A stretch of 64,000 nucleotides of DNA. It comes from Eubacteriales bacterium (lineage in GTDB: Bacteria; Bacillota; Clostridia; Oscillospirales; CAG-272). The stretch covers positions 11,501-75,500 of the forward strand of contig JAZNAM010000087.1 of NCBI GenBank assembly GCA_045586515.1. Reading direction: 5' to 3'. The position numbers and the translations under genes were made by a program. The notes under the pieces were generated by a model. It did no database searches and had not been told where the DNA came from. It saw only the letters and a list, made by a program, of their open reading frames with translations. Of the stretch, positions 26,389 to 39,966 are shown piece by piece; position 1 is the first letter of the stretch, and every line of letters begins with the position of its first letter.

Positions 26389-26409
26389 ATTTGAGTCGAG
26401 GTGAAGGAT

Positions 26410-26970
26410 ATGAACAAACAACAATTGCTGGATCGTCTTGCTGACTGCCCCGTGATTGCAGCCGTGGGCGAAGACGGATTTGAGGCGGCACTCGCCTCGC
26501 CTGTCGAAGTCATTTTCTGTTTGCGTGCCAACATTTTAACCATGCCGCATTACATCGAAAAGGCACATGCAGCGGGAAAGGCTATTTTTGTGCATGTTGA
26601 TCTCGCGGACGGTATTGGGCGCGATCGCGCAGGGCTCTCGTATCTCGCCTCGCTCGGCGCGGACGGCGTAATCAGCACACGCACGCAACTGGTGCGCGCG
26701 GCGAGAGAGGAAGGGCTGCTTACGGTGCAACGCTTCTTTGCACTGGATTCACAGGGACTTGTCAGCATGGAAGAAACGCTGGGCGGAGCCGCTTCGGATT
26801 TGGTGGAGATCATGCCGGGTGTCATAGGCAAGGTCGTCGTGCGTGTGGCAAGAGGAAATGCCCCTGTAATTGCGGGGGGGTTAATCGAAACGAAAGACGA
26901 GCTTCTTGGCGCGTTGTCGCACGGTGCGCTTGCTGTGTCAACGGGCAAAAAAGAGCTTTGGTATATGTGA
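26410..26970 (+). CDS. glpP: Glycerol-3-phosphate-responsive antiterminator GlpP
   Basis: MNKQQLLDRLADCPVIAAV...IFVHVDLADGIGRD...GADGVISTR...IAGGLI matches the GlpP/G3P_antiterm family by eye. RBS GAGGTGAAGGA. Confidence 0.8.
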   Translation: MNKQQLLDRLADCPVIAAVGEDGFEAALASPVEVIFCLRANILTMPHYIEKAHAAGKAIFVHVDLADGIGRDRAGLSYLASLGADGVISTRTQLVRAAREEGLLTVQRFFALDSQGLVSMEETLGGAASDLVEIMPGVIGKVVVRVARGNAPVIAGGLIETKDELLGALSHGALAVSTGKKELWYM

Positions 26971-26979
26971 GGTATAGTA

Positions 26980-28413
26980 ATGTATGACGTAATTATCATT
27001 GGTGCGGGTGTGATTGGCGGAATGTTGGCGCGACAGCTTTCTCGCTACCGTTTGCGTGTTTGCGTGCTCGAAAAAGAAAATGATGTTGCCGAGGGTGCAA
27101 GCAAGGCAAACAGCGGTATCTTGCACGGCGGTTACGACCCCGAACCCGGTACGCTGAAAGCAAAACTCAATGCCGAGGGTGTGGAAAAACTGTACACGGC
27201 GGCGCGCGAATTAAACGTGCCTTGCAAAAATAACGGTTCTTTCGTTTGTGCGTTTGGCACCGAGGAAGAGGAAGCTGTGGTGCGCGAACTCTACGCACGC
27301 GGCTTGCAAAATGGCATCACAAACCTTTCTATTCTGACAGGTGACGAGGCACGCGAGCGGGAGCCGATGCTTTCCGAGCAAGTGTCCTTGGTGCTTGACG
27401 TGCCCCGAGCAGGCATTATTTGCCCTTATGAGCTCACCCTCGCCGCAATCGGCAACGCCATGGACAACGGTGCTACGCTCAAGCTCAATTTTGCCGTTGC
27501 GCGTATTGAAAAAAAGGAGGGTGTGTTCTGTGTAACGAACGCAGACGGAGATGCTGTTATGGGCAAGTACGTGGTGAACTGTGCGGGAGCGTACTCGGAC
27601 AAGATTGCCGCGATGGTTGGTGATGAGAGTTTTTGCATCATTCCTCGCGCGGGCGAGTATATGCTGCTCGATAAAAACGAGGGCGCGCGCGTATCACGCA
27701 CCATCTTCCAGGTGCCGAGCAAAGAGGGCAAAGGTATCCTTGTATCCCCCACAGTGGACGGCAATTTGCTCACCGGACCAACAGCGGTTCAAGTGGCAGA
27801 TCCTGCGTGTACCGAAACGAGTGCGAATGGACTTGCGACGGTACAGCGCCTTGCCGCGAAAAGCGTGCCGAGCGTTAATTTCCGTCAGGTGATTACGTCT
27901 TTCACAGGCGTGCGGTCCTCTGAAAAAAGCGGAGATTTCATCATTCGCCCCGCAAACGGTGTGGAAAAAATGCTCAACGTCGCAGCAATTGACTCCCCCG
28001 GTCTTTCGGCTTCGGTTGCCATTGCGGATTATGCAATTGAGCAGTTGCAAGGTATGGGCCTTCCCGATGAGGCCAGCGAGAACTTCAACCCATATCGTGC
28101 CGACCCTCATGCGTTTCGTCATATGAGCGACGAGGAGAAGGATGCTTTTATCAAGGAAAATCCTGCCTACGGCAAGATTGTGTGCCGCTGTGAAACGGTG
28201 AGCGAGGGCGAGATATTAAACGCCATTCGCCAAAACCCCGGCGCCCGCGATATTGATGGTGTGAAGCGCCGCACGCGCTCGGGCATGGGACGTTGTCAGG
28301 GTGGCTTCTGTATGCCCTACGTGATGAAGCTGCTTGCGCGCGAGCAAGGTGTGGCGATGGAAACGATCACCAAAAAAGGCAAGGGCTCCGAGCAACTGAT
28401 TGGAAAAATGTGA
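26980..28413 (+). CDS. FAD-dependent glycerol-3-phosphate dehydrogenase/oxidase-like protein with a BFD-like [2Fe-2S] domain
   Basis: N-terminal dinucleotide fold YDVIIIGAGVIGG. C-terminal CRCETVSEGEI...GRCQGGFC. Follows glpP. Confidence 0.8.
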   Translation: MYDVIIIGAGVIGGMLARQLSRYRLRVCVLEKENDVAEGASKANSGILHGGYDPEPGTLKAKLNAEGVEKLYTAARELNVPCKNNGSFVCAFGTEEEEAVVRELYARGLQNGITNLSILTGDEAREREPMLSEQVSLVLDVPRAGIICPYELTLAAIGNAMDNGATLKLNFAVARIEKKEGVFCVTNADGDAVMGKYVVNCAGAYSDKIAAMVGDESFCIIPRAGEYMLLDKNEGARVSRTIFQVPSKEGKGILVSPTVDGNLLTGPTAVQVADPACTETSANGLATVQRLAAKSVPSVNFRQVITSFTGVRSSEKSGDFIIRPANGVEKMLNVAAIDSPGLSASVAIADYAIEQLQGMGLPDEASENFNPYRADPHAFRHMSDEEKDAFIKENPAYGKIVCRCETVSEGEILNAIRQNPGARDIDGVKRRTRSGMGRCQGGFCMPYVMKLLAREQGVAMETITKKGKGSEQLIGKM

Positions 28414-28422
28414 GGAAACGGT

Positions 28423-29670
28423 ATGAGAACACATGATATTGTTGTCATCGGCGGTGGGCCTGCCGGTATGGCTGCGGCGGTTGCCGCATACGATGCCGGT
28501 GTGCACGACGTTGTGATATTGGATAGAGAGGAAGGGCTTGGCGGCATTTTGCGCCAATGTATCCATAACGGGTTTGGATTGCATAAACTTGGCCGCGAGT
28601 TAACGGGACCCGAATATGCCGACGTATATCGAGCCGAGGTGGAAAAGCGCGGTATTACCACGCTTCTTGAAACCACCGTTACGGGGCTTGCGTCTGACCG
28701 TGTGATCACGGCAAGAAATCGCGAGGGCGTTTTGAAAATCAGGGCGGGCGCCGTGCTGCTTGCCATGGGCTGTCGCGAGCGTTCACGCGGCGCGCTGAAC
28801 ATTGGCGGCACACGACCGGCTGGCGTTTACAGCGCGGGTACGGCGCAAAAGCTGATGAACTGTGAGGGATATCGCGTGGGCAAACGCGTGGTGATCCTCG
28901 GTTCGGGCGATATTGGCCTTATTATGGCGCGCCGTATGTCGCTGGAGGGCGCTAAGGTTGAGGCAGTTTGCGAGATCATGCCTTATTCGGGTGGACTTGC
29001 GCGAAACATCGTGCAGTGCTTGGAGGACTTCGGTATTCCGCTTTATCTGTCTACCACCGTTGCAGAGATTCATGGCAAGGAGAGAGTGGAGGGCGTAACA
29101 ATCGCAAAGGTTGATGAAAATCGTTGCGTGATTGAGGAAACGAAGCGTTACATTCCTTGCGACACGTTGCTGCTTTCTTGCGGACTGATCCCCGAGAACG
29201 AGCTAACGCGCGGCGCGGATATTGACATTAATCCCATAACAGGTGGTGCATCCGTGAGTGAGGATCGTGAAACGGCGGTGCCCGGCATCTTTGCTTGCGG
29301 CAACGTGTTGCAGGTGCATGACCTGGTGGATTACGTGTCCGAGGAGGCGGAGATCGCAGGTCGAGGCGCCGCCACATTCGTGCAAAGCGGTAAGGAGCGT
29401 GGCGCGTGTGTTCCTACGGTTGGCACGCACGGCGTGCGTTACGTTCTGCCGCAGCGCGTGCACACGGAGGGAGATGCAGACGTGGCGCTGTATTGGCGCG
29501 TGGCTGCCCCTTGTGGGAAGGTGCGCTTTACTGCGAAATCGGGCGATAAGGTGATTGCAAGCGTCGTGCGTCTTAAGGCCGCCCCTGGCGAGATGGAGAA
29601 GCTTGTTTTGAAACGTGAAAAGCTTGTGGGCGTGACCGAGCCGATCACGGTTTCGATGGAGGTGCTGTGA
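28423..29670 (+). CDS. NAD(P)/FAD-dependent pyridine-nucleotide-disulfide-type oxidoreductase (second subunit of the clostridial glp oxidoreductase set)
   Basis: Two Rossmann motifs, VVIGGGPAGMAAA and VVILGSGDIGLIMA, plus GIFACGNV. Confidence 0.75.
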   Translation: MRTHDIVVIGGGPAGMAAAVAAYDAGVHDVVILDREEGLGGILRQCIHNGFGLHKLGRELTGPEYADVYRAEVEKRGITTLLETTVTGLASDRVITARNREGVLKIRAGAVLLAMGCRERSRGALNIGGTRPAGVYSAGTAQKLMNCEGYRVGKRVVILGSGDIGLIMARRMSLEGAKVEAVCEIMPYSGGLARNIVQCLEDFGIPLYLSTTVAEIHGKERVEGVTIAKVDENRCVIEETKRYIPCDTLLLSCGLIPENELTRGADIDINPITGGASVSEDRETAVPGIFACGNVLQVHDLVDYVSEEAEIAGRGAATFVQSGKERGACVPTVGTHGVRYVLPQRVHTEGDADVALYWRVAAPCGKVRFTAKSGDKVIASVVRLKAAPGEMEKLVLKREKLVGVTEPITVSMEVL

Positions 29671-30014
29671 TGGAAAGAACGTTGACTTGTATCATTTGTC
29701 CCCGTGGTTGCACGTTGAATGTGACGGGCGAGCGCGATGCGCTCCAAGTCGAGGGCAATGCTTGCCCCAAGGGTGCACAGTATGCGATTGACGAGTGCAC
29801 GCATCCCGTGCGAACCGTGACCTCGGTTGTTCGTGTTGCAAACAGAGAGGATACGATGGTGAGCGTCAAGACCGCTACGCCTGTACCCAAGGAGTGTATT
29901 TTTGAGGTGATGGAGGCGATCCGCGCGGCAAGCGTAGATGCGCCCGTTGCCTCAGGCACGGTGCTGCTCACCGCATGCGGTGCGGACATCGTTGCCACTA
30001 AGAGCATTGTATAA
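29670..30014 (+). CDS. DUF1667 domain protein (Cys-rich small subunit)
   Basis: TGATG overlap with the previous gene. CIICPRGCTL...GNACPKG motifs. The usual third member of this operon type. Confidence 0.75.
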   Translation: MERTLTCIICPRGCTLNVTGERDALQVEGNACPKGAQYAIDECTHPVRTVTSVVRVANREDTMVSVKTATPVPKECIFEVMEAIRAASVDAPVASGTVLLTACGADIVATKSIV

Positions 30015-30016
30015 TG

Positions 30017-30044
30017 AAAAAAGCCCCCGTTTGGGGGCTTTTTT
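30017..30044. terminator. Bidirectional intrinsic terminator
   Basis: AAAAAAGCCCCC-GTTT-GGGGGCTTTTTT between convergent operons. Confidence 0.9.
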
Positions 30045-30047
30045 GTT

Positions 30048-30992
30048 TTAATAAAAGGTGACAACCGTGTTTTTCGGCTCGGAGGAGCGTGCCACGTCGG
30101 TGGCATAGAGCACGGGGCCCTCGCTGCCGTAGAGTTTGTGGCGCTGGATGCGGATTTTGGCAGTTACAACGAGCCACTCGCCCGTTTGGTAGGAAACGGC
30201 GTGATCAAAGTTGCACACAAGACCGCCAAAGGCAATATCGTCCTCGCAGCAAGTCATGATATGTCTGCCAATGACGAGCGCCTTGTCACCGAGCTCGCGG
30301 TTGCGTGCGATCAGTCCCTTGAATTTGACGGTTTTTTCGTCCCAATCGGGAATACTGTCGCTAAGATCGCGGTAGAAGAAGGCGTAATCCTTATCTTCGA
30401 TTGTTACGATGGGCGCGTCCACGTCGAAGGGCAAGGGGTCGACCGTTTCGTCATATTCGAGTTCATCATCCACTTCGTAGGCAATCTGCGACATGCGGCT
30501 GATGCCACGCACCAATTTGTGCAACGCTTCGCGGTCGACGTTCTCAGCGCGGTTGAAGATGACGGTGTCGGCATTTTGGAGTTTGTCCACCATGAGCTGA
30601 CGCATATTCGCATTGTAGAGCAGCGCGGTTCTTGCATCGACGAACATCAGCTGTTGATAGATCATCCAGTTGTGGGGGAGTGCCGCGTAGAGTGTTTCAA
30701 GCGGCCACATGCCGTTGTACTCGACCATAACGCGGTCAATGCGATGATTGCGGTTGTAGTCCGCGAGTAGATCAAGCGTGAGGTCGCTTTCCTTGTCGAT
30801 GGTCATGCGGTGCACGTTTTGTCCGAAGAATAGGGAAGGATCATACTCCTCAACGCCCTCCTCGCACACGAGCAAAAGAATGCGGCAACCGTCGTTAAAT
30901 TCCGGGTTTTCCAGCGCTTCCTGGATCATTTGGGTTTTGCCCGCTTCCAGAAAGCCCGTGAACAGATAGACGGGAATTTGTTTGTTTTCCAT
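30048..30992 (-). CDS. G3E/CobW-like P-loop NTPase lacking the CXCC motif, fused to a DUF1980-C-like double-Cys C-terminal domain
   Basis: Start moved to MENKQIPVYLFTGFLEAGKT (ATG comp 30990-92, RBS AAGGGG, 10 nt after the upstream stop). Walker A GFLEAGKT. C-terminal KTVKFKGLIARN...VIGRHIMTCCEDDIAFGGLVC...WLVVTAKI resembles the YcgQ/TIGR03943 C-terminal domain (assigned from memory). Confidence 0.6.
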   Translation of the reverse strand: MENKQIPVYLFTGFLEAGKTQMIQEALENPEFNDGCRILLLVCEEGVEEYDPSLFFGQNVHRMTIDKESDLTLDLLADYNRNHRIDRVMVEYNGMWPLETLYAALPHNWMIYQQLMFVDARTALLYNANMRQLMVDKLQNADTVIFNRAENVDREALHKLVRGISRMSQIAYEVDDELEYDETVDPLPFDVDAPIVTIEDKDYAFFYRDLSDSIPDWDEKTVKFKGLIARNRELGDKALVIGRHIMTCCEDDIAFGGLVCNFDHAVSYQTGEWLVVTAKIRIQRHKLYGSEGPVLYATDVARSSEPKNTVVTFY

Positions 30993-31002
30993 GCTGTGCC
31001 CC

Positions 31003-32169
31003 TTATTTAAGTTCCACGCCGAACAGGGTGGAGAGTGCGTCGCGGTCAAGATCCGCACCGATCACGCAAAGGCGGCCGATAATGCCAGCCGAACCTTCGC
31101 GGACGTCGGGCTCACCGGGAACGTAGTCAAAATGAATCCAACCGCCCTCACCTGCAACGATGCCCTTGGCACGCAGAACAGTGCCGTAGGCGTAGTTGGA
31201 GAGTGCGCCGAGAGCATGTTCAATTTCTGCCTTGTTGAAAATTTTGGTGCTCTCTGCGCCAAGGCTCATGAACACTTCGTCGGCGTGATGATGGTGATGA
31301 TCATGGCCGCAGGAGCAATGTTCACCGTGCTCATGGTGATGCTCGTGGTGGTGTTCGTGGCAATCGCAATGCTCATCATGATGATGGTGCTCATGCTCGT
31401 GATGATGCTCGTGACACTCGCAATGCTCATCATGATGATGTTCGTGTTCATGATGATGCTCATGGCAGTCACAATGCTCATCATGATGATGGTGCTCGTG
31501 CTCGTGATGGTGATGATGACCGCAAACGGGGCATGTGCCCTCGTTTTTGAGGTGCTCTATTGCTGCGGCAAGCGTGTCGCGGCGCTCAATGGCGGCAAGC
31601 AGTTGGTCGCCTGAAAGCTCACTCCAATCGGTAGTTACGATCACGGCGTCTTTGTTTTGCTCGCGGCAAAGGGTAACCGCCGCCATCACCTTTTCGGGGG
31701 AGAGTCCCTTGGTGTGGCTGAGCACAATCGTGCCTGCGTGTGCAACCTGATCGCCGAAGAACTCACCGAAATTCTTGAGATACATACGGCACTTACCTGC
31801 GTCCACGACGGTCACAAAGGAGGAGAGCACGAAGTGCTCGTCTGCCACGCCCTCAACGGCGCGGATGACATCGGAGAGTTTACCAACGCCCGATGGCTCG
31901 ATGAGGATGCGGTCGGGGTGAAACTCATCGCGCACTTTGACAAGCGCACGCGCAAAATCGCCCACCAGGGAGCAGCAGATGCATCCCGAGTTCATCTCGG
32001 TAATGTTCACACCGGCATCTGCGAGAAAGCCGCCGTCAATACCGATCTCGCCAAACTCGTTTTCAATCAGGACGAGCTTCTCGCCCGCATACGCTTCTGC
32101 GATCAATTTCTTGATCAGCGTGGTCTTTCCTGCGCCGAGGAAGCCCGAAAAAATATCAATTTTGGTCAT
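31003..32169 (-). CDS. CobW/COG0523-family metallochaperone GTPase with a His/Cys-rich repeat linker
   Basis: Walker A GFLGAGKTT, metal motif GCICCS, CobW_C-like C-terminus (GTVLRAKGIV...GRLCVIGADLD), ~84-aa His-rich insert. RBS AAGGAGA, 12 nt after the thiI stop. Confidence 0.88.
   Translation of the reverse strand: MTKIDIFSGFLGAGKTTLIKKLIAEAYAGEKLVLIENEFGEIGIDGGFLADAGVNITEMNSGCICCSLVGDFARALVKVRDEFHPDRILIEPSGVGKLSDVIRAVEGVADEHFVLSSFVTVVDAGKCRMYLKNFGEFFGDQVAHAGTIVLSHTKGLSPEKVMAAVTLCREQNKDAVIVTTDWSELSGDQLLAAIERRDTLAAAIEHLKNEGTCPVCGHHHHHEHEHHHHDEHCDCHEHHHEHEHHHDEHCECHEHHHEHEHHHHDEHCDCHEHHHEHHHEHGEHCSCGHDHHHHHADEVFMSLGAESTKIFNKAEIEHALGALSNYAYGTVLRAKGIVAGEGGWIHFDYVPGEPDVREGSAGIIGRLCVIGADLDRDALSTLFGVELK
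31285..31533 (-). repeat. In-frame tandem coding repeat: four ~17-18-codon His/Glu/Asp units, each ending in C-x-C
   Basis: CobW residues ~213-295: CPVCG-HHHHHEHEHHHHDEHCDC-HEHHHEHEHHHDEHCEC-HEHHHEHEHHHHDEHCDC-HEHHHEHHHEHGEHCSC-GHDHHHHH. The catgatgatg/ctcgtg periodicity is visible on the plus strand. Confidence 0.9.
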
Positions 32170-32181
32170 GGGGAATTCTCC

Positions 32182-33360
32182 TTAAAACTTTGCTTTGATA
32201 TGGAAGGTTTGTAACGTTTCCATTGCCGCGTCACAGAGCTCGGCGAAGGGGAGCTTTTGCTCCTGTTCCTCCACACGTGCAAGGACGGGGCGCGTTTTGG
32301 GATGCTTGGGGGTAAACACAGTGCAGCAGTCCTCATAGGGAAGAATCGAAGTGTCGAAGGTGTCGATGCGACGTGCGATCTGCACGATCTCCTCCTTATC
32401 CATACCGATAAGGGGGCGGAACACGGGGTAACGCGCTATGGCGTTGGTTACGCCCAGCGCTTGCATGGTCTGCGACGCGACCTGACCCAGACTTTCGCCG
32501 GTGATGAGGGCTTCACAGCTTGTTTTCTCTGCCACGCGATTGGAAAGCTCCATCATGTAGCGGCGGAGTAGCAACGTGAAGTATTCCTCGTCGCACGCTT
32601 TCACAAGCTTTTCCTGAATGTCTGTGAGCGAGATGACGTGTAGCTGCATGCTGCCGCTCCAACGGGCAACGAGGTGGGCAAGATCGATGACCTTTTGTCT
32701 TGCTTGCTCGCTGGTGTAGGGCATGGATTCAAAATAAAGTGCTTCCAGACGCACGCCGCGTTTTGCCATCATCCAACCTGCCACGGGGGAGTCGATGCCG
32801 CCCGACAAGAGCAGAAGTCCCTTGCCGTTGGTGCCGACGGGAAGACCGCCCGCGCCCTGGAACTGTCCTGCGTGGATATAAGCGGCACGGTCGCGCACCT
32901 CGACGCGCACGGTGATTTCGGGTTCATGCACGTTGACGCGCAAACGTGGACACACCGAAAGGATCTCGCCGCCAATGGTGGCGGAAATTTCGGGGGAGGA
33001 GAGAGGGAAGAGCTTGTCCGAGCGCTTTGCCTCAACTTTAAAGGTTTTTTTGCCTGCAAGGAACGTGGGCAGATACGCCTTGGCAACCTCCTTGATGCTA
33101 TCCATATTCTTTTCCGCGACGGCGGCGCGTACTACGGCTGCAATGCCGAACACACGGCAGGCAGCTTCAAATGCGCCATCCAGGTCTGCAAAATCATCGA
33201 GCGGTTCGATGGTAATGGTGCTTTGCACATTGCGCACCTCAAATTTGCCGAAGTTGTAAAGACGGTATTTGAGGTCCTTAACAAGCGCCTCTTCGAAATG
33301 GCGGCGATTGGCACCCTTGAGCACGATTTCGCCGAATTTACAAAGAATGATCTCTTTCAT
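32182..33360 (-). CDS. thiI: tRNA 4-thiouridine(8) synthase ThiI (no rhodanese domain)
   Basis: THUMP-type N-terminus (ILCKFGEIVLKGANRRHFE). PP-loop LLLSGGIDSPVAGWMM. The ATG at comp 33358-60 lies 7 nt after AAAGGAG. GTG at 33366 is an alternative start. Confidence 0.9.
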   Translation of the reverse strand: MKEIILCKFGEIVLKGANRRHFEEALVKDLKYRLYNFGKFEVRNVQSTITIEPLDDFADLDGAFEAACRVFGIAAVVRAAVAEKNMDSIKEVAKAYLPTFLAGKKTFKVEAKRSDKLFPLSSPEISATIGGEILSVCPRLRVNVHEPEITVRVEVRDRAAYIHAGQFQGAGGLPVGTNGKGLLLLSGGIDSPVAGWMMAKRGVRLEALYFESMPYTSEQARQKVIDLAHLVARWSGSMQLHVISLTDIQEKLVKACDEEYFTLLLRRYMMELSNRVAEKTSCEALITGESLGQVASQTMQALGVTNAIARYPVFRPLIGMDKEEIVQIARRIDTFDTSILPYEDCCTVFTPKHPKTRPVLARVEEQEQKLPFAELCDAAMETLQTFHIKAKF

Positions 33361-33573
33361 ATACACACTCCTTTGTGTGGTTGTTTTCTAACTATTTATT
33401 ATAGCACAAGGCGGCGAAAAACACAAGAGCGCGTGGCAAAGAAGGATACTTTTTTTACCGCGGGCTCGACCTTTTTCGCGTGTGTGACATAGAATGGTAA
33501 AAACACCCTGTGATTAAGTACTTGCAAATTGGCGGACAATAGTACTGAAAACATACCAGTGGAGGGAAATGCC

Positions 33574-34014
33574 ATGATCAGCGTAAAACGCGGCGATATA
33601 TACTATGCGGATCTGAGCCCGGTGGTGGGCTCCGAACAGGGCGGACTTCGTCCCGTGCTTATTATACAGAACGATGTGGGGAATCGGTACAGCCCTACCG
33701 TGATTGCTGCGGCAATCACCTCGCGCCTTGGCAAAACCAAACTGCCTACTCATATTGATGTGCACGCGGAACGTGCGGGGCTTTCGCGCGATTCTGTTGT
33801 TTTGCTTGAACAGCTTCGCACGCTTGACAAGCGCCGATTAAAGGAGCGCATGGGGCGTTTGGATGATGATATGATGCGCGAGATTGATGCCGCGATTGCA
33901 GTGAGCCTTGGACTCGTGCCGCGTGAGGGACATGTCATAACGGGAACATTACGTACGCAAGAGAGCGCGGCAGTTGCCGTTGCCGACGATGCGGTAGGGC
34001 ATTCGATGGGATAA
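33574..34014 (+). CDS. mazF: MazF/PemK (EndoA/NdoA-type) endoribonuclease toxin with a ~30-aa C-terminal extension
   Basis: Starts at [37 protein letters not shown] after RBS GGAGGG. The core matches B. subtilis NdoA closely by eye. 146 aa, against ~116 aa typical. Confidence 0.85.
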
Positions 34015-34150: not shown

Positions 34151-35116
34151 ATGGCTCTTGTAACAACCAAGGAGATGTTTAAGAAGGCATACGAGGGTGG
34201 CTACGCTATCGGCGCTTTCAACATCAACAACATGGAAATCATCCAGGCAATCACCGAAGCAGCTGCAGAGGAGCAGTCCCCTGTTATTTTGCAGGTGTCC
34301 GCAGGCGCACGCAAGTACGCAAAGCTCGCATACCTGATGGGTCTTGCTCGTGCGGCAATTGAGGATAGTGGTGTTGACCTTGCGCTTCACCTTGACCACG
34401 GCGCAGATTTTGAGATTTGCAAGTCTTGCATCGACGGCGGTTTCACCTCCGTGATGATCGACGGCTCTCACCATTCCTTCGAGGACAACATTGCACTTAC
34501 GCGCAAGGTTGTTGAGTACGCACACGCACACGGCGTTGTTGTCGAGGGCGAGCTTGGTGTTCTGGCAGGCGTTGAGGATGACGTCGTGGCAGAGCACTCG
34601 TCCTACACCCGTCCCGAGGAGGTTGAGGAGTTCGTTTCCCGTACCGGTGTTGACTCTCTTGCCATCTCTATCGGCACTTCTCACGGTGCATACAAGTTCA
34701 CTCCCGCACAGTGCACTCGCAATGCAGACGGTATTCTCGTTCCGCCCCCTCTTCGTTTTGACATTCTTGAGGAGATCGGCAAGAGATTGCCCGGTTTCCC
34801 GATCGTTCTGCACGGCGCATCCTCCGTTTCTCAGGAGCACGTAAAGGAGATCAATGCGCTCGGCGGTAAGCTTCCGGATGCTGTTGGTATTCCCGAGGAG
34901 CAGCTTCGTCGCGCCGCCTCCCTTGCTGTTTGTAAGATCAATATCGACTCCGATATCCGTCTTGCGATGACTGCCGGTATTCGCCGCGTATTCAGCGACA
35001 AGCCCGGTGCATTTGACCCTCGCGAGTACCTCTCTGTTGCTCGTAACGAGGTCAAGGCAATGGTTCAGCACAAGATTAAGAACGTGCTTGGTTCTTCGGG
35101 CACGCTCGGCAAGTAA
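34151..35116 (+). CDS. fba: Class II fructose-1,6-bisphosphate aldolase
   Basis: The product has YAIGAFNINNME, LHLDHG and SIGTSHGAYKF motifs. RBS AAAGGAGA. Promoter TTGATT-N17-TATAAT upstream. Confidence 0.92.
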   Translation: MALVTTKEMFKKAYEGGYAIGAFNINNMEIIQAITEAAAEEQSPVILQVSAGARKYAKLAYLMGLARAAIEDSGVDLALHLDHGADFEICKSCIDGGFTSVMIDGSHHSFEDNIALTRKVVEYAHAHGVVVEGELGVLAGVEDDVVAEHSSYTRPEEVEEFVSRTGVDSLAISIGTSHGAYKFTPAQCTRNADGILVPPPLRFDILEEIGKRLPGFPIVLHGASSVSQEHVKEINALGGKLPDAVGIPEEQLRRAASLAVCKINIDSDIRLAMTAGIRRVFSDKPGAFDPREYLSVARNEVKAMVQHKIKNVLGSSGTLGK

Positions 35117-37544: not shown

Positions 37545-37691
37545 CTGAATCCGATTTTGGATGGCAAATTAATGGTCTGGCTGTGTCAGCGCTCTTGGCA
37601 ATATCCGCATATTGCCTGCGTGTGCTTCCTTGCCATAACAAAAATTTGCTCCCCCAAAACTCACAAGACTTGTCGGGTGTGTGATTTCAGA

Positions 37692-37770
37692 TTTGTCGGT
37701 TTTGACTACAAGGAGTGCCGAAGGTGCAAGGCGAGCGTGCTTGCCGAATCTCTCAGGCAAAAGGACAGGG
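37692..37770 (+). promoter_or_regulatory. Glycine riboswitch aptamer (second of two)
   Basis: GGAGTGCCGAAGGTGCAAGGCGAGCGTGCTTGCCGAATCTCTCAGGCAAAAGGACAGGG. The 3' core is near identical to the consensus. P1 candidate TTGTC/GACAG(G). Confidence 0.8.
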
Positions 37771-37808
37771 CGAAAAGAATAATCTTTTCGTACCCTACTT
37801 ATTCTTTG

Positions 37809-37846
37809 GAGTTGCCGCCGTCTGCGGGCAACTCTATTTTTATTTT
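37809..37846 (+). terminator. Riboswitch expression-platform terminator
   Basis: Stem GAGTTGCC/GGCAACTC (37809-16/37827-34) followed by TATTTTTATTTT, 20 nt before the symporter RBS. Confidence 0.75.
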
Positions 37847-37865
37847 CCAAAGGAGAAAAAACAAC

Positions 37866-39479
37866 ATGTGGGCAAACATTCAAGCTGCACTCGACAGCGT
37901 GCAGGCAACGCTTCTCACAGGTGTTGACACCGTTAACAACTACCTGTCCAACTGGATCCTTTTGATTCTTTTGGTTGGTATCGGTCTGTTCTACACCATT
38001 CGCACCAGATTCGTTCAGGTTCGTTGCTTCGGCGAGGGCATGAAAAACGTATTTGGCAATTTTAAGATGAAGGGCGAGAACAATGGTAAGATCTCCTCCT
38101 TCCAGGCAGTCGCTACTGCGATTGCGGCGCAGGTCGGTACGGGTAACATTGTGGGTGCTTGCGGCGCAATTCTTGTTGGTGGTCCCGGCGCCATCTTCTG
38201 GATGTGGATCATCGCCTTCTTCGGCATGGCAACCATCTATGCCGAGGCAGTTCTTGCGCAGAAGACGCGCGTGGTGGACGAGGACGGCACCGTTCGCGGC
38301 GGTCCCGTTTACTACATCCGTCACGCATTCAAGGGTTGGTTCGGCAAGTTCCTTGCGGGCTTCTTCGCCGTTGCTGCCATCATCGCACTTGGCTTTGTTG
38401 GTGCTATGGTGCAGTCTAACTCGATTGCGGGCAACGTGGCAGGTGCTTTCTCTGCTTGTGGTATGACGGGTGATAACGCGCTGTTTGTCGTTAAAATCGT
38501 TACCGGTATCATTGTAGCAGCGCTTGCGGGTGTCGTGCTGTTTGGCGGCACCAAGCGTCTTGCTTCCGTTACCGAGAAGATGGTTCCCATCATGGCGCTT
38601 CTCTATCTCATTGGTGGCGCGTGCGTTCTCGTTCTTCGTATGGAGCATATTCCCGAGGCGATCGGTATGATCTTCAAGTACGCTTTCAAGCCCCAGGCAG
38701 TTGCAGGCGGTACGCTTGGCGCAGCCATTATGCTTGCCGTAACGCAGGGTGCAAAGCGCGGTCTGTTCTCCAACGAGGCAGGTATGGGTTCTACCCCCCA
38801 CGCACACGCACTTGCTGACGTGAAAGATCCTCACACGCAGGGTACTACCGCTATGATCGGTGTGTTCATTGATACCTTTGTTGTGCTTACGATGACCGCA
38901 ATGATCGTGATTACCACGTTGTATGCTTCCGATGGCATTATTGGTCAGCTGATTCAGCTGAACGGTTATACCGGCAACGCATACTCCATCAAAGAGCTTC
39001 TTGCCATGGTTGGTTCCGGTCTTGATGGCAGCAACATGGCGCAGCAGGGTGTGGCAATGGCGTTCGGCGCATCGGGCGCAGACGTTAGATTTGGCAGCAT
39101 TCTCATTGCTATTTGCCTGTTCTTCTTTGCATTCTCCACGATTCTCAGCTGGAACTACTTCGGCAAGGTCAACTTTGAGCATCTCTTCGGCAAGAAGTCC
39201 GCAACTGTATACGGAATTATCGCCGTTGCGTTTGTGTTCCTTGGCTCTATTTTCTCCAACGATCTCGTTTGGGCGTTGACTGATATGTTCAACAACCTCA
39301 TGGTTATCCCCAACGTTATGGCAATTGCTGTTCTTTCCGGCATAGTTGTCAATTCCGCTTGGAAGAAAAAGAAGGCTTGCTGCTGTTGCTGTGAGTGCGC
39401 CGATGCTGAGACAGTTGCCGCTGAGGTGGCGGCTGATGAGGCAGAGGTTGAGGAAACCGTTGAAGCGGTAGAGGAATAA
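37866..39479 (+). CDS. Sodium:alanine/glycine symporter (AGCS family), intact, with a poly-Cys acidic C-terminal tail
   Basis: Starts at MWANIQAALDS after RBS AAAGGAGAA. The product has the AGCS motifs SSFQAVATAIAAQVGTGNIVG, GGPGAIFWMW, GGPVYYI and FSNEAGMGS. The ORF-track start at 37557 would run through the riboswitch. Confidence 0.9.
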   Translation: MWANIQAALDSVQATLLTGVDTVNNYLSNWILLILLVGIGLFYTIRTRFVQVRCFGEGMKNVFGNFKMKGENNGKISSFQAVATAIAAQVGTGNIVGACGAILVGGPGAIFWMWIIAFFGMATIYAEAVLAQKTRVVDEDGTVRGGPVYYIRHAFKGWFGKFLAGFFAVAAIIALGFVGAMVQSNSIAGNVAGAFSACGMTGDNALFVVKIVTGIIVAALAGVVLFGGTKRLASVTEKMVPIMALLYLIGGACVLVLRMEHIPEAIGMIFKYAFKPQAVAGGTLGAAIMLAVTQGAKRGLFSNEAGMGSTPHAHALADVKDPHTQGTTAMIGVFIDTFVVLTMTAMIVITTLYASDGIIGQLIQLNGYTGNAYSIKELLAMVGSGLDGSNMAQQGVAMAFGASGADVRFGSILIAICLFFFAFSTILSWNYFGKVNFEHLFGKKSATVYGIIAVAFVFLGSIFSNDLVWALTDMFNNLMVIPNVMAIAVLSGIVVNSAWKKKKACCCCCECADAETVAAEVAADEAEVEETVEAVEE

Positions 39480-39492
39480 TCTCAGTTCAAAT

Positions 39493-39523
39493 AAAAAGGC
39501 AGAGCGGTCCGCTCTGCCTTTTT
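39493..39523 (+). terminator. Intrinsic terminator after the symporter gene
   Basis: AAAAAGGCAGAGC-GGTCC-GCTCTGCCTTTTT. Confidence 0.88.
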
Positions 39524-39573
39524 GCATATGGTGCGATTTGTGCGCATATGCTCCGTTTGAGAGGGGGGAGGGC

Positions 39574-39966
39574 ATGACTCTTTTTGAAAGCATAGAGAAA
39601 AGGGGGCAGCTCTACCGTCACGGCGGGAGAGAGGTGCTCCGCGTTGCCGCTACACACGTAACGGGTAAGAGCGCGGCGGCACAGCATACCGAGGCGCTTG
39701 TCTTGGCGCTTATCACGTACGCGGAGCAGACACTTTTGCCGTGTGCTTGCCAAGCGCTGGATCTTGCCTTGGCAAATGGTTCGGGATATGCGTTTCATTC
39801 GCATCAATATCATATTAACGTGGTGGAAAAACGCGTGGCGCATGGGGTGATGATTACGCTCGCCGCGGCACTTCAAACGAGCGACGCATATGAGGAGCGC
39901 ACGCTCATAATGTACTGGACACAGGACGGCACATGGCAAAAAAGAAGGCATCACCGAGAGCGGTGA
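39574..39966 (+). CDS. Hypothetical protein (130 aa)
   Basis: ATG after RBS GGGGGGAGGG. No recognisable motif. The terminator overlaps its 3' end. Confidence 0.45.
   Translation: MTLFESIEKRGQLYRHGGREVLRVAATHVTGKSAAAQHTEALVLALITYAEQTLLPCACQALDLALANGSGYAFHSHQYHINVVEKRVAHGVMITLAAALQTSDAYEERTLIMYWTQDGTWQKRRHHRER

Follow-up and report, generated by a model that had tools for sequence, protein, structure and literature searches.

To our knowledge, no class of nucleotide-dependent metallochaperones is larger or less well understood than the COG0523 GTPases; clients and mechanisms have been assigned to only a handful of members, and they are treated as single-chain proteins. Within this class the CXCC motif constitutes the metal site, and the histidine stretches carried by many G3E proteins have been tied to metal storage or chaperoning (PMC2770081, PMC11672702). 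RxKG, an arginine finger, was recently shown to be the one motif of the COG0523 C-terminal domain (CTD) that is invariant (PMC13001444). A second described system that bears on the present work is the YcgR/YcgQ pair (also ScfA/ScfB or SMU.746/747), whose function is unknown and which has been tied to envelope stress, acid tolerance and virulence (PMC5584981). Here we describe a locus that draws on both systems, in which a gene for a COG0523 GTPase (cobW) is followed by a gene for a degenerate relative (the cobW-like gene, whose product is called the partner). It lies in a 64,000-nucleotide stretch (the window) of the genome of a Eubacteriales bacterium of the Oscillospirales lineage CAG-272 (assembly GCA_045586515.1, contig JAZNAM010000087.1, positions 11,501 to 75,500).

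Three genes on the minus strand make up the locus. The first, thiI, occupies positions 32182..33360 (ATG at 33360, TAA at 32182; 392 amino acids) and is followed by cobW at 31003..32169 (ATG at 32169, TAA at 31003; 388 amino acids) and the cobW-like gene at 30048..30992 (ATG at 30992, TAA at 30048), which encodes a soluble product of 314 amino acids. Direct reading of the DNA gives gaps of 12 nucleotides (ggagaattcccc) between thiI and cobW and 10 nucleotides (ggggcacagc) between cobW and the cobW-like gene, so that every coordinate and spacing in an earlier note on this DNA, made from the letters alone, proved correct. Each of the three starts has a Shine-Dalgarno-like purine run, and no terminator was found between the genes.

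The two GTPase genes are one conserved, free-standing two-gene unit. From the matches to a search pattern built from 10 closer sequences, 80 genome loci (L001-L080) were kept, and a cobW orthologue lies directly upstream of the partner gene, on the same strand, in all 79 that could be tested; the 80th has just 45 nucleotides of upstream sequence. An open reading frame (ORF) with cobW and CobW_C domains was also found directly upstream in five of five distant lineages sampled (29-33% identity). The reverse test, which started from cobW in metagenome contigs, recovered the partner downstream in 70 of 72 testable loci. Among the 80 metagenome loci, a full partner is present in 59, a partner cut by the contig end in 10 and a frameshifted partner in one (L167, 4228-5132); two loci (L132 and L156) have no partner despite at least 694 nucleotides of downstream sequence, and the downstream sequence of eight was too short for the test. 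Order, strand and tight spacing (mostly 0-40 nucleotides) are kept at about 97% of testable loci, and the pairing suggested in the earlier note is thereby upheld from both directions. At two of the metagenome loci (among L092-L171) the partner gives its best match not downstream but about 2 kb upstream of the end of cobW, which could represent a reversed order or a second copy.

The partner family is also abundant. At least 8000 clusters at 90% identity scored for the fused architecture, and all 120 of the clusters listed carry PF21537, most of them together with PF02492; at E<=1e-30 there are 261 clusters at 50% identity. In a one-genome-per-species collection at least 592 of 600 pattern matches were confirmed, and these matches belong almost entirely to Oscillospiraceae, Acutalibacteraceae and other Clostridia. 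The pair occurs in two cultured species, Subdoligranulum variabile and Vescimonas fastidiosa; in the latter (WP_212821807.1 and WP_212821806.1) it is annotated in RefSeq as 'CobW family GTP-binding protein' and 'GTP-binding protein'. Databases carry the cobW-like family under the name 'GTP-binding protein' only, and an exact-sequence search with the window protein returned no identical record. In the openly searchable literature, as distinct from that available by subscription only, no paper was found on the pair or on DUF1980 together with COG0523. Thus, the 'undescribed composition' claimed for this module holds as far as that literature goes, but the family itself is common and databased.

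The upstream member of the pair is a canonical COG0523 GTPase. Its product matches PF02492 at 1.1e-34 (120.1 bits, cut-off 20.7) and CobW_C (PF07683) at 1.1e-05 (25.6 bits, cut-off 22), and it carries GFLGAGKT (P-loop), ENEFGE, GCICCS (residues 62-67), IEPSGV (ExxG) and RAKG (residues 333-336), in agreement with the earlier assignment. Among 56 cobW orthologues GFLGAGKT, GCICC and IEPSGV are invariant, ENEFGE is kept in 54 and R[AST]KG in all 56. The P-loop, ENEFGE, GCICC and ExxG motifs, the His-rich linker and the CobW_C domain with RxKG all liken this protein to YjiA, YeiR, ZigA, ZagA/YciC, CobW and ZNG1. At the position of the G4 motif, for which [NT]KxD is expected, it has LSHTKG (window 31705-31722), and orthologues have LS[HR]T[KD]. 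Its scores fall below every cut-off for a characterised equivalog, including TIGR02475 (CobW; 79.9 bits against 332), NF038288 (ZigA; 65 against 600), PRK11537 (YjiA-like; 79.1 against 361) and NF041053 (CobW_rel_Se; 81.8 against 180).

Between the G domain and CobW_C lies a His/Cys-rich linker (31285..31533, minus strand; residues 213-295) with 45 His and 10 Cys. It is made of about 3.2 copies of an 18-residue (54-nucleotide) repeat, HEHHHEHEHHHHDEHCDC, and is followed by a conserved HHHHADEVF junction; the repeat-built linker noted previously as about 84 residues long is therefore present, with a length of 83. All 56 orthologues have such a linker, of 22-142 residues (median 78.5), ending in HHHHADEVF. 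Histidine stretches are found in roughly 40% of COG0523 proteins, and 29 His is the maximum noted (PMC2770081). The linker is thus unusual not in kind but only in degree (length and Cys content), and to call the architecture of the first GTPase non-standard, as the earlier note did, overstates the case. The linker probably acts as a metal reservoir. Hydropathy analysis revealed no hydrophobic segment in either GTPase.

The partner retains much less of the COG0523 pattern. Its product matches PF02492 at 1e-08 (35.4 bits, cut-off 20.7), and a profile alignment with YjiA (E=1.3e-09) places a degenerate G3E domain at residues 7-167 (30492..30974, minus strand). The AlphaFold2 model has a mean predicted local distance difference test (pLDDT) score of 95, and Foldseek finds its N-terminal half to be like HypB, YjiA, UreG and the signal recognition particle (SRP) GTPases. 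The domain carries the Walker A motif GFLEAGKT, CEEGVEE as the equivalent of ENEFGE, and EYNGMW (E91, N93, G94) as the ExxG Walker B motif. FNRA (FNR(C/A) in the family) stands in place of NKxD, so that the Asp that specifies guanine is gone. Across 48 aligned members of the family, which are 29-53% identical to the window protein, residues G13, G18, K19, T20, E44, G46, E91 and N93 are invariant or nearly so, and homologues down to 29% identity keep the same length. The product falls short of every NCBIfam equivalog cut-off.

The profile comparison also settles where the CXCC site has gone. The earlier note was right that the partner keeps GFLEAGKT and lacks CXCC, but the segment that it placed at the CXCC position, LLLVCEEGVEEY, aligns instead with the switch-I ENEFGE motif of YjiA, as does the CEEGxxE motif (E44, G46) of the family profile. 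Downstream of CEEGxxE the family profile has a deletion that takes in the CXCC loop present in YjiA, and neither the alignment nor the YjiA comparison shows a Cys cluster between G2 and G3. At the C-terminus no match to PF07683 (CobW_C with RxKG) was obtained; PF21537 is found there instead. Judged by its motifs, the partner is an ancient CXCC-less G3E paralog that has kept the putative core for nucleotide binding and hydrolysis and in which DUF1980_C has replaced CobW_C. Having the G3E fold, P-loop and ExxG but lacking CXCC, NKxD and CobW_C, it falls outside the definition of COG0523. A precedent for COG0523 relatives with lost motifs is Rv0106, which is without GTPase motifs and keeps a CXSC remnant (PMC2770081). 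The partner is its opposite, since the nucleoside triphosphatase (NTPase) core is kept and the whole CXCC loop is lost.

The last ~110 residues of the partner had been likened by eye to the C-terminal domain of YcgQ/TIGR03943 (DUF1980) proteins, and this resemblance is borne out. PF21537 (DUF1980_C) matches residues 193-309 (30066..30416, minus strand) at 7e-19, scoring 68.3 bits where 25.9 are required. TIGR03943 itself reaches 68.9 bits, below its cut-off of 88.8, and matches over model positions 95-219 only, so the similarity is real over the C-terminal half and partial overall. The membrane half of that family is missing from the partner, which has no PF09323 match and no transmembrane segment (maximum 19-residue hydropathy 0.79). 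Because Foldseek searches with the whole model were dominated by the G domain, DUF1980_C was modelled and searched separately. The isolated domain (pLDDT 92.4) is predicted to form a five-stranded oligonucleotide/oligosaccharide-binding (OB) barrel preceded by a helix, and its nearest folds in the PDB are Ten1, RPA14, AspRS-N and SSB (best E=4e-04, template modelling (TM) score 0.58). In the 48-sequence alignment its most conserved residues are R243, C248, C249, D252, W273 and P293, the first four being invariant or nearly so. The conserved C248-C249-x-x-D252 motif (MTCCEDD; 30237..30257, minus strand) lies after R243 in the turn between strands beta2 and beta3 and is a candidate metal-ligand site.

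Sequence searches with DUF1980_C alone recovered no YcgQ proteins, just fragments belonging to the fused family itself, and a search of solved structures gave no match to the domain (YjiA alone matched, via the G domain). An example of a YcgQ protein was found by tblastn against plasmid and secondary-replicon records, in Bacillus sp. N5-665 (L091, 1567-3366). This locus encodes an ArsP/DUF318-type permease, with sub-threshold similarity to the SO_0444 Cu/Zn efflux and SaoE transporters, followed by a bona fide TIGR03943 protein (226 bits). Alignment of the fused-family C-domain profile with this protein by hhalign gives 97.7% probability (E=2e-12, 118 columns) and equates R243 with R, C248 with H, C249 with C, D252 with D, W273 with W and P293 with P. 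CCxxD occurs in 211 of 235 fused-family proteins, and the aligned motif HCxxD (R..IIHC[IV]AD) in 115 of 115 Bacillaceae TIGR03943 proteins. A [His/Cys]-Cys-x-x-Asp signature common to both architectures is as would be expected of a metal site. The likeness to YcgQ/ScfB/SMU.747 is thus one of a homologous C-terminal domain with common R...[H/C]CxxD, W and GPVL/IPVL positions. In contrast to YcgQ, the partner lacks the transmembrane DUF1980_N half and the His/Cys loop, has CC instead of HC, carries the domain fused to a cytosolic NTPase and has no adjoining gene for a YcgR/ScfA-type permease.

The Bacillaceae TIGR03943/YcgQ proteins (L091 and P0390-P0509) have a His/Cys-rich loop between transmembrane helices (e.g. 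CSCDHSHCGHDH), and the permease partner of the TIGR03943 protein carries a PGCECG motif. Together with HCxxD, these motifs suggest that the whole YcgRQ/ScfAB system handles a thiophilic metal, a role that was not found stated in the literature searched. The association of YcgQ proteins with zinc-starvation loci made in the earlier note likewise found no confirmation in the papers located.

Obligate pairing, a full COG0523 protein, a stripped paralog and an OB domain with a Cys-Cys-Asp signature are best fitted by a two-subunit metal-handling module. A stand-alone, probably heteromeric, cytosolic module is the explanation towards which we lean, with slightly more confidence than doubt. CobW and the partner would work jointly in the cytosol, in the simplest case as a heterodimer formed through their G domains, as in other SIMIBI/G3E NTPases; by analogy with HypB, UreG and the SRP GTPases, this pairing may depend on nucleotide. 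Binding and hydrolysis of nucleotide would control the hand-over of a divalent metal, for which Zn, Ni and Co are all compatible with the His/Cys chemistry of the pair. Metal might move between the His/Cys reservoir and CXCC of CobW and the CCxxD motif on the OB domain of the partner, and then pass on to unlinked client proteins. The complex, its metal binding, the direction of transfer and the clients are what we infer. In this lineage only, thiI would have joined the module as the first gene of the operon.

Such a module would resemble HypB/HypA, UreG/UreE and the dimeric SIMIBI proteins (SRP54-FtsY, Nbp35-Cfd1), which likewise combine a G3E or SIMIBI NTPase with a separate metal-binding partner. 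They also feature His-rich metal-storage stretches and nucleotide-gated dimerisation, and HypB and UreG are structural neighbours of the partner G domain. However, the hypB model TIGR00073 gives only 17 bits (cut-off 121), and the pair has no linked genes for hydrogenase or urease. It differs further in that a second, degenerate NTPase carries the domain that would bind metal, and in that the heterodimer is a prediction. Characterised COG0523 proteins are single polypeptides, whereas the system described here is an obligate gene pair, and it has no nearby Zur box, B12 riboswitch or client gene. The CobW linker, with its 45 His and 10 Cys, also exceeds the 29-His maximum noted for the class (PMC2770081).

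Several points weigh against this explanation. COG0523 proteins are generally held to be monomeric, and their CTD is thought to hinder dimerisation of the HypB/UreG kind (PMC11672702). The folds nearest in structure to the OB domain, matched at modest scores, are OB folds that bind nucleic acid. The link between DUF1980 and metals rests on motif chemistry and on the sub-threshold similarity of the permease to metal exporters, the HCxxD census covers Bacillaceae only (48-95% identity), and the published phenotypes of ScfAB/SMU.746-747 make no mention of metals (PMC5584981). The searches turned up no operator or riboswitch responsive to metal from which the identity of the metal could be read. 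Both G4 motifs are non-canonical, which makes the GTP specificity of both proteins uncertain; with the G4 of CobW also deviating, nucleotide specificity of the two subunits may differ from that of textbook COG0523 GTPases. Complex formation, metal binding by DUF1980_C and NTPase activity of the partner are all predictions. A stronger claim, that the pair is the first obligately heteromeric COG0523-type chaperone and that its OB-fold CCxxD domain is the soluble cytosolic counterpart of the YcgQ/ScfB domain, is offered tentatively, as a possibility about which we are more doubtful than confident.

The alternative that survives best, unlikely as it seems to us, is that the partner is a non-metal regulatory or adaptor paralog resembling a pseudo-GTPase, which tunes the CobW cycle or targets CobW to a client or site through its OB domain, the two cysteines being structural or redox-sensing. 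The absence of CXCC, of CobW_C with RxKG and of the NKxD Asp would suit such a role, as would the common use of OB folds in protein-protein or protein-ligand recognition. The partner also evolves faster than cobW: in L084 the cobW product is 56% identical and the fused partner only 31%. However, the invariant P-loop, switch-I Glu and ExxG mark an NTPase core under purifying selection rather than a dead pseudoenzyme. Furthermore, the positions most conserved in the OB domain hold typical ligands of metals (Cys, Cys and Asp, with His-Cys-Asp in YcgQ-type proteins).

We judge it improbable that the OB domain binds nucleic acid (transfer RNA (tRNA), ribosomal RNA or single-stranded DNA) and thereby anchors CobW at the translation machinery or on enzymes of tRNA modification, ThiI among them. 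The Foldseek neighbours Ten1, RPA14, SSB and the anticodon-binding domains of AspRS/AsnRS do bring this function to mind, thiI is co-transcribed at this locus, and for ZigA it has been proposed that metal is inserted co-translationally at the ribosome (PMC11672702). Nevertheless, the structural matches are weak (the best has E=4e-04; TM scores 0.4-0.6, 10-15% identity) and are of the kind that a generic OB fold would give, and the same domain forms the soluble part of a membrane permease subunit. Its signature is Cys-Cys-Asp rather than a basic or aromatic surface for nucleic acid, and the linkage to thiI is limited to one small clade.

That the two genes are functionally independent tandem paralogs, their adjacency being a relic of duplication, appears very improbable. 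Both products have a PF02492 domain, but their G domains are only ~23-27% identical, so the duplication would be ancient, and the order, strand and spacing described above have been kept while all other neighbours change.

The remaining alternative concerns thiI. Its product matches TIGR00342 with 372.9 bits (cut-off 264.5) and PF02568 at 2.7e-71, as well as PF02926 and PF22025, and is thus a tRNA uracil-4 sulfurtransferase (s4U8) with ThiI_fer, THUMP and PP-loop domains. Pfam and NCBIfam scans gave no match to a rhodanese domain, and this ThiI is therefore of the short type. Immediately upstream of cobW, thiI is found only in L002-L005, the four closest relatives (64-69% identity). L046 has a nifS-thiI pair 2.4 kb upstream of the module, with cinA and a sortase-like gene in between, and this thiI retains its usual cysteine-desulfurase neighbour. 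No thiI was detected by tblastn near the pair in 74 of the 80 genome loci, nor within 3 kb of it in any of the 80 metagenome loci. These searches over 160 loci, together with inspection of L046, rule out thiI as a conserved context. The adjacency is local to this lineage, confined to one small clade, and has no general significance for the pair. Accordingly, the service to ThiI suggested in the earlier note, which named non-conservation of this adjacency as grounds for refutation, is not supported. A dedicated ThiI accessory system, in which the pair would load a metal or Fe-S centre or relay sulfur via its vicinal cysteines, might be read from the short gaps, the single promoter and terminator, the recurrence of the adjacency in L002-L005 and the need of a ThiI without rhodanese domain for another sulfur or cofactor route, but it is the least likely of the alternatives, being strongly disfavoured by a phylogenetic distribution in which the pair is conserved far outside the thiI-linked clade and, in L046, stands apart from thiI across two unrelated genes.

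Neither a transport partner nor a metal-responsive control element accompanies the pair. As the earlier note had observed, no DUF318 permease is present among the ten neighbouring window genes scanned, and no DUF318/ArsP permease appears in the top 25 neighbour families drawn from 238 flanking genes. Its report of no obvious Zur-type palindrome likewise withstood searches with a Bacillus-type Zur consensus and for exact 6-mer inverted repeats. Upstream of thiI there is no TCGTAATNATTACGA-like site at up to four mismatches, and the repeat search found one weak repeat only, at the mazF start. A Zur-type site with three mismatches was seen in one of 70 loci. The census of 125 non-redundant upstream regions contained no recurrent palindrome, only sigma-A -35/-10 and ribosome-binding-site words. 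An Rfam scan at gathering thresholds of the window and six other loci detected no riboswitch upstream of the pair. From these sequence searches, expression appears to be constitutive and not Zur-controlled. Constitutive-looking promoters and the lack of paralog-replacement genes among the surveyed flanks argue against a classical Zur-type starvation response. In one Oscillospiraceae metagenome-assembled genome, a cobalamin riboswitch (RF00174, 52.5 bits; L011, 8422-8607, plus strand) lies about 1.5 kb downstream of the pair and is not placed to control it.

A conserved client gene was sought by sequence clustering of the flanking ORFs and by a Pfam census, and nothing conserved emerged: no Pfam family exceeds 7 occurrences among the 107 downstream neighbours or 5 among the 131 upstream. 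PADLOC gave no match to an anti-phage defence system. Some metal enzymes do recur beside the pair. Metallopeptidases flank it in various lineages (M29 at four loci, M3 at three, M24 at two and M18/M20 in L084 and L082), an iron-containing alcohol dehydrogenase adjoins it at four loci and ZnuA at one. A class II fructose-bisphosphate aldolase is found beside it at five genome loci and 0.8 kb from the window operon (34151-35116). These counts ignore kinship between loci, and no single family is dominant; they offer a weak hint that Zn or Co enzymes might be among the clients.

The operon is bounded by putative transcription signals. A promoter-like site (33398..33426, minus strand) reads TTGTGT-17 nt-TGcTATAAT, with an extended -10, and was recognised by eye; it was missed by the consensus scan because its -35 hexamer matches the consensus at just three of six positions, and its role as the promoter of the three-gene operon is inferred. 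Downstream, a bidirectional intrinsic terminator with a 12-bp stem (30017..30044, both strands) is common to the thiI-cobW operon and a convergent operon on the plus strand (26401-30014). The latter encodes a GlpP antiterminator, a GlpA-like FAD oxidoreductase with a BFD [2Fe-2S] domain, a pyridine-nucleotide disulphide oxidoreductase and a DUF1667 protein, a cluster of the anaerobic glycerol-3-phosphate dehydrogenase type.

Divergent from thiI lies an ORF for a PemK/MazF-type toxin (33529-34014, plus strand; 161 amino acids; PF02452 at 3.9e-36) with a C-terminal extension of about 35 residues past the PF02452 domain. The 168-nucleotide gap upstream of it holds no antitoxin-sized ORF, and the same MazF-type gene adjoins thiI in L002. 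About 4 kb from the operon, a glycine riboswitch aptamer (RF00504; 37685-37776, plus strand) scores 35.8 bits against a gathering threshold of 32 and overlaps two long ORFs on opposite strands (37557-39479, plus; 37569-39593, minus).

The pair overturns nothing established. For a chaperone class that is poorly understood, it offers a clean two-component form that is widespread and amenable to experiment, its presence in the cultured strains of V. fastidiosa and S. variabile making such work feasible. Pairing with a CXCC-less paralog might place the reservoir or donor role and the acceptor or adaptor role on separate polypeptides, which would ease biochemical dissection. The arrangement also provides the first testable functional hypothesis for DUF1980_C, a domain that is present as well in the YcgQ/ScfB subunits needed for streptococcal virulence and acid tolerance. 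If the pair is indeed a heteromeric chaperone, then COG0523 G domains can pair like those of HypB, UreG and the SRP GTPases. A role in metal hand-off would then extend to DUF1980 proteins as a whole, among them those of the ScfAB system linked to virulence and of the SMU.746/747 system linked to acid stress. Oscillospiraceae and other gut Clostridia, in which the module is abundant, live where competition with the host for metals matters.

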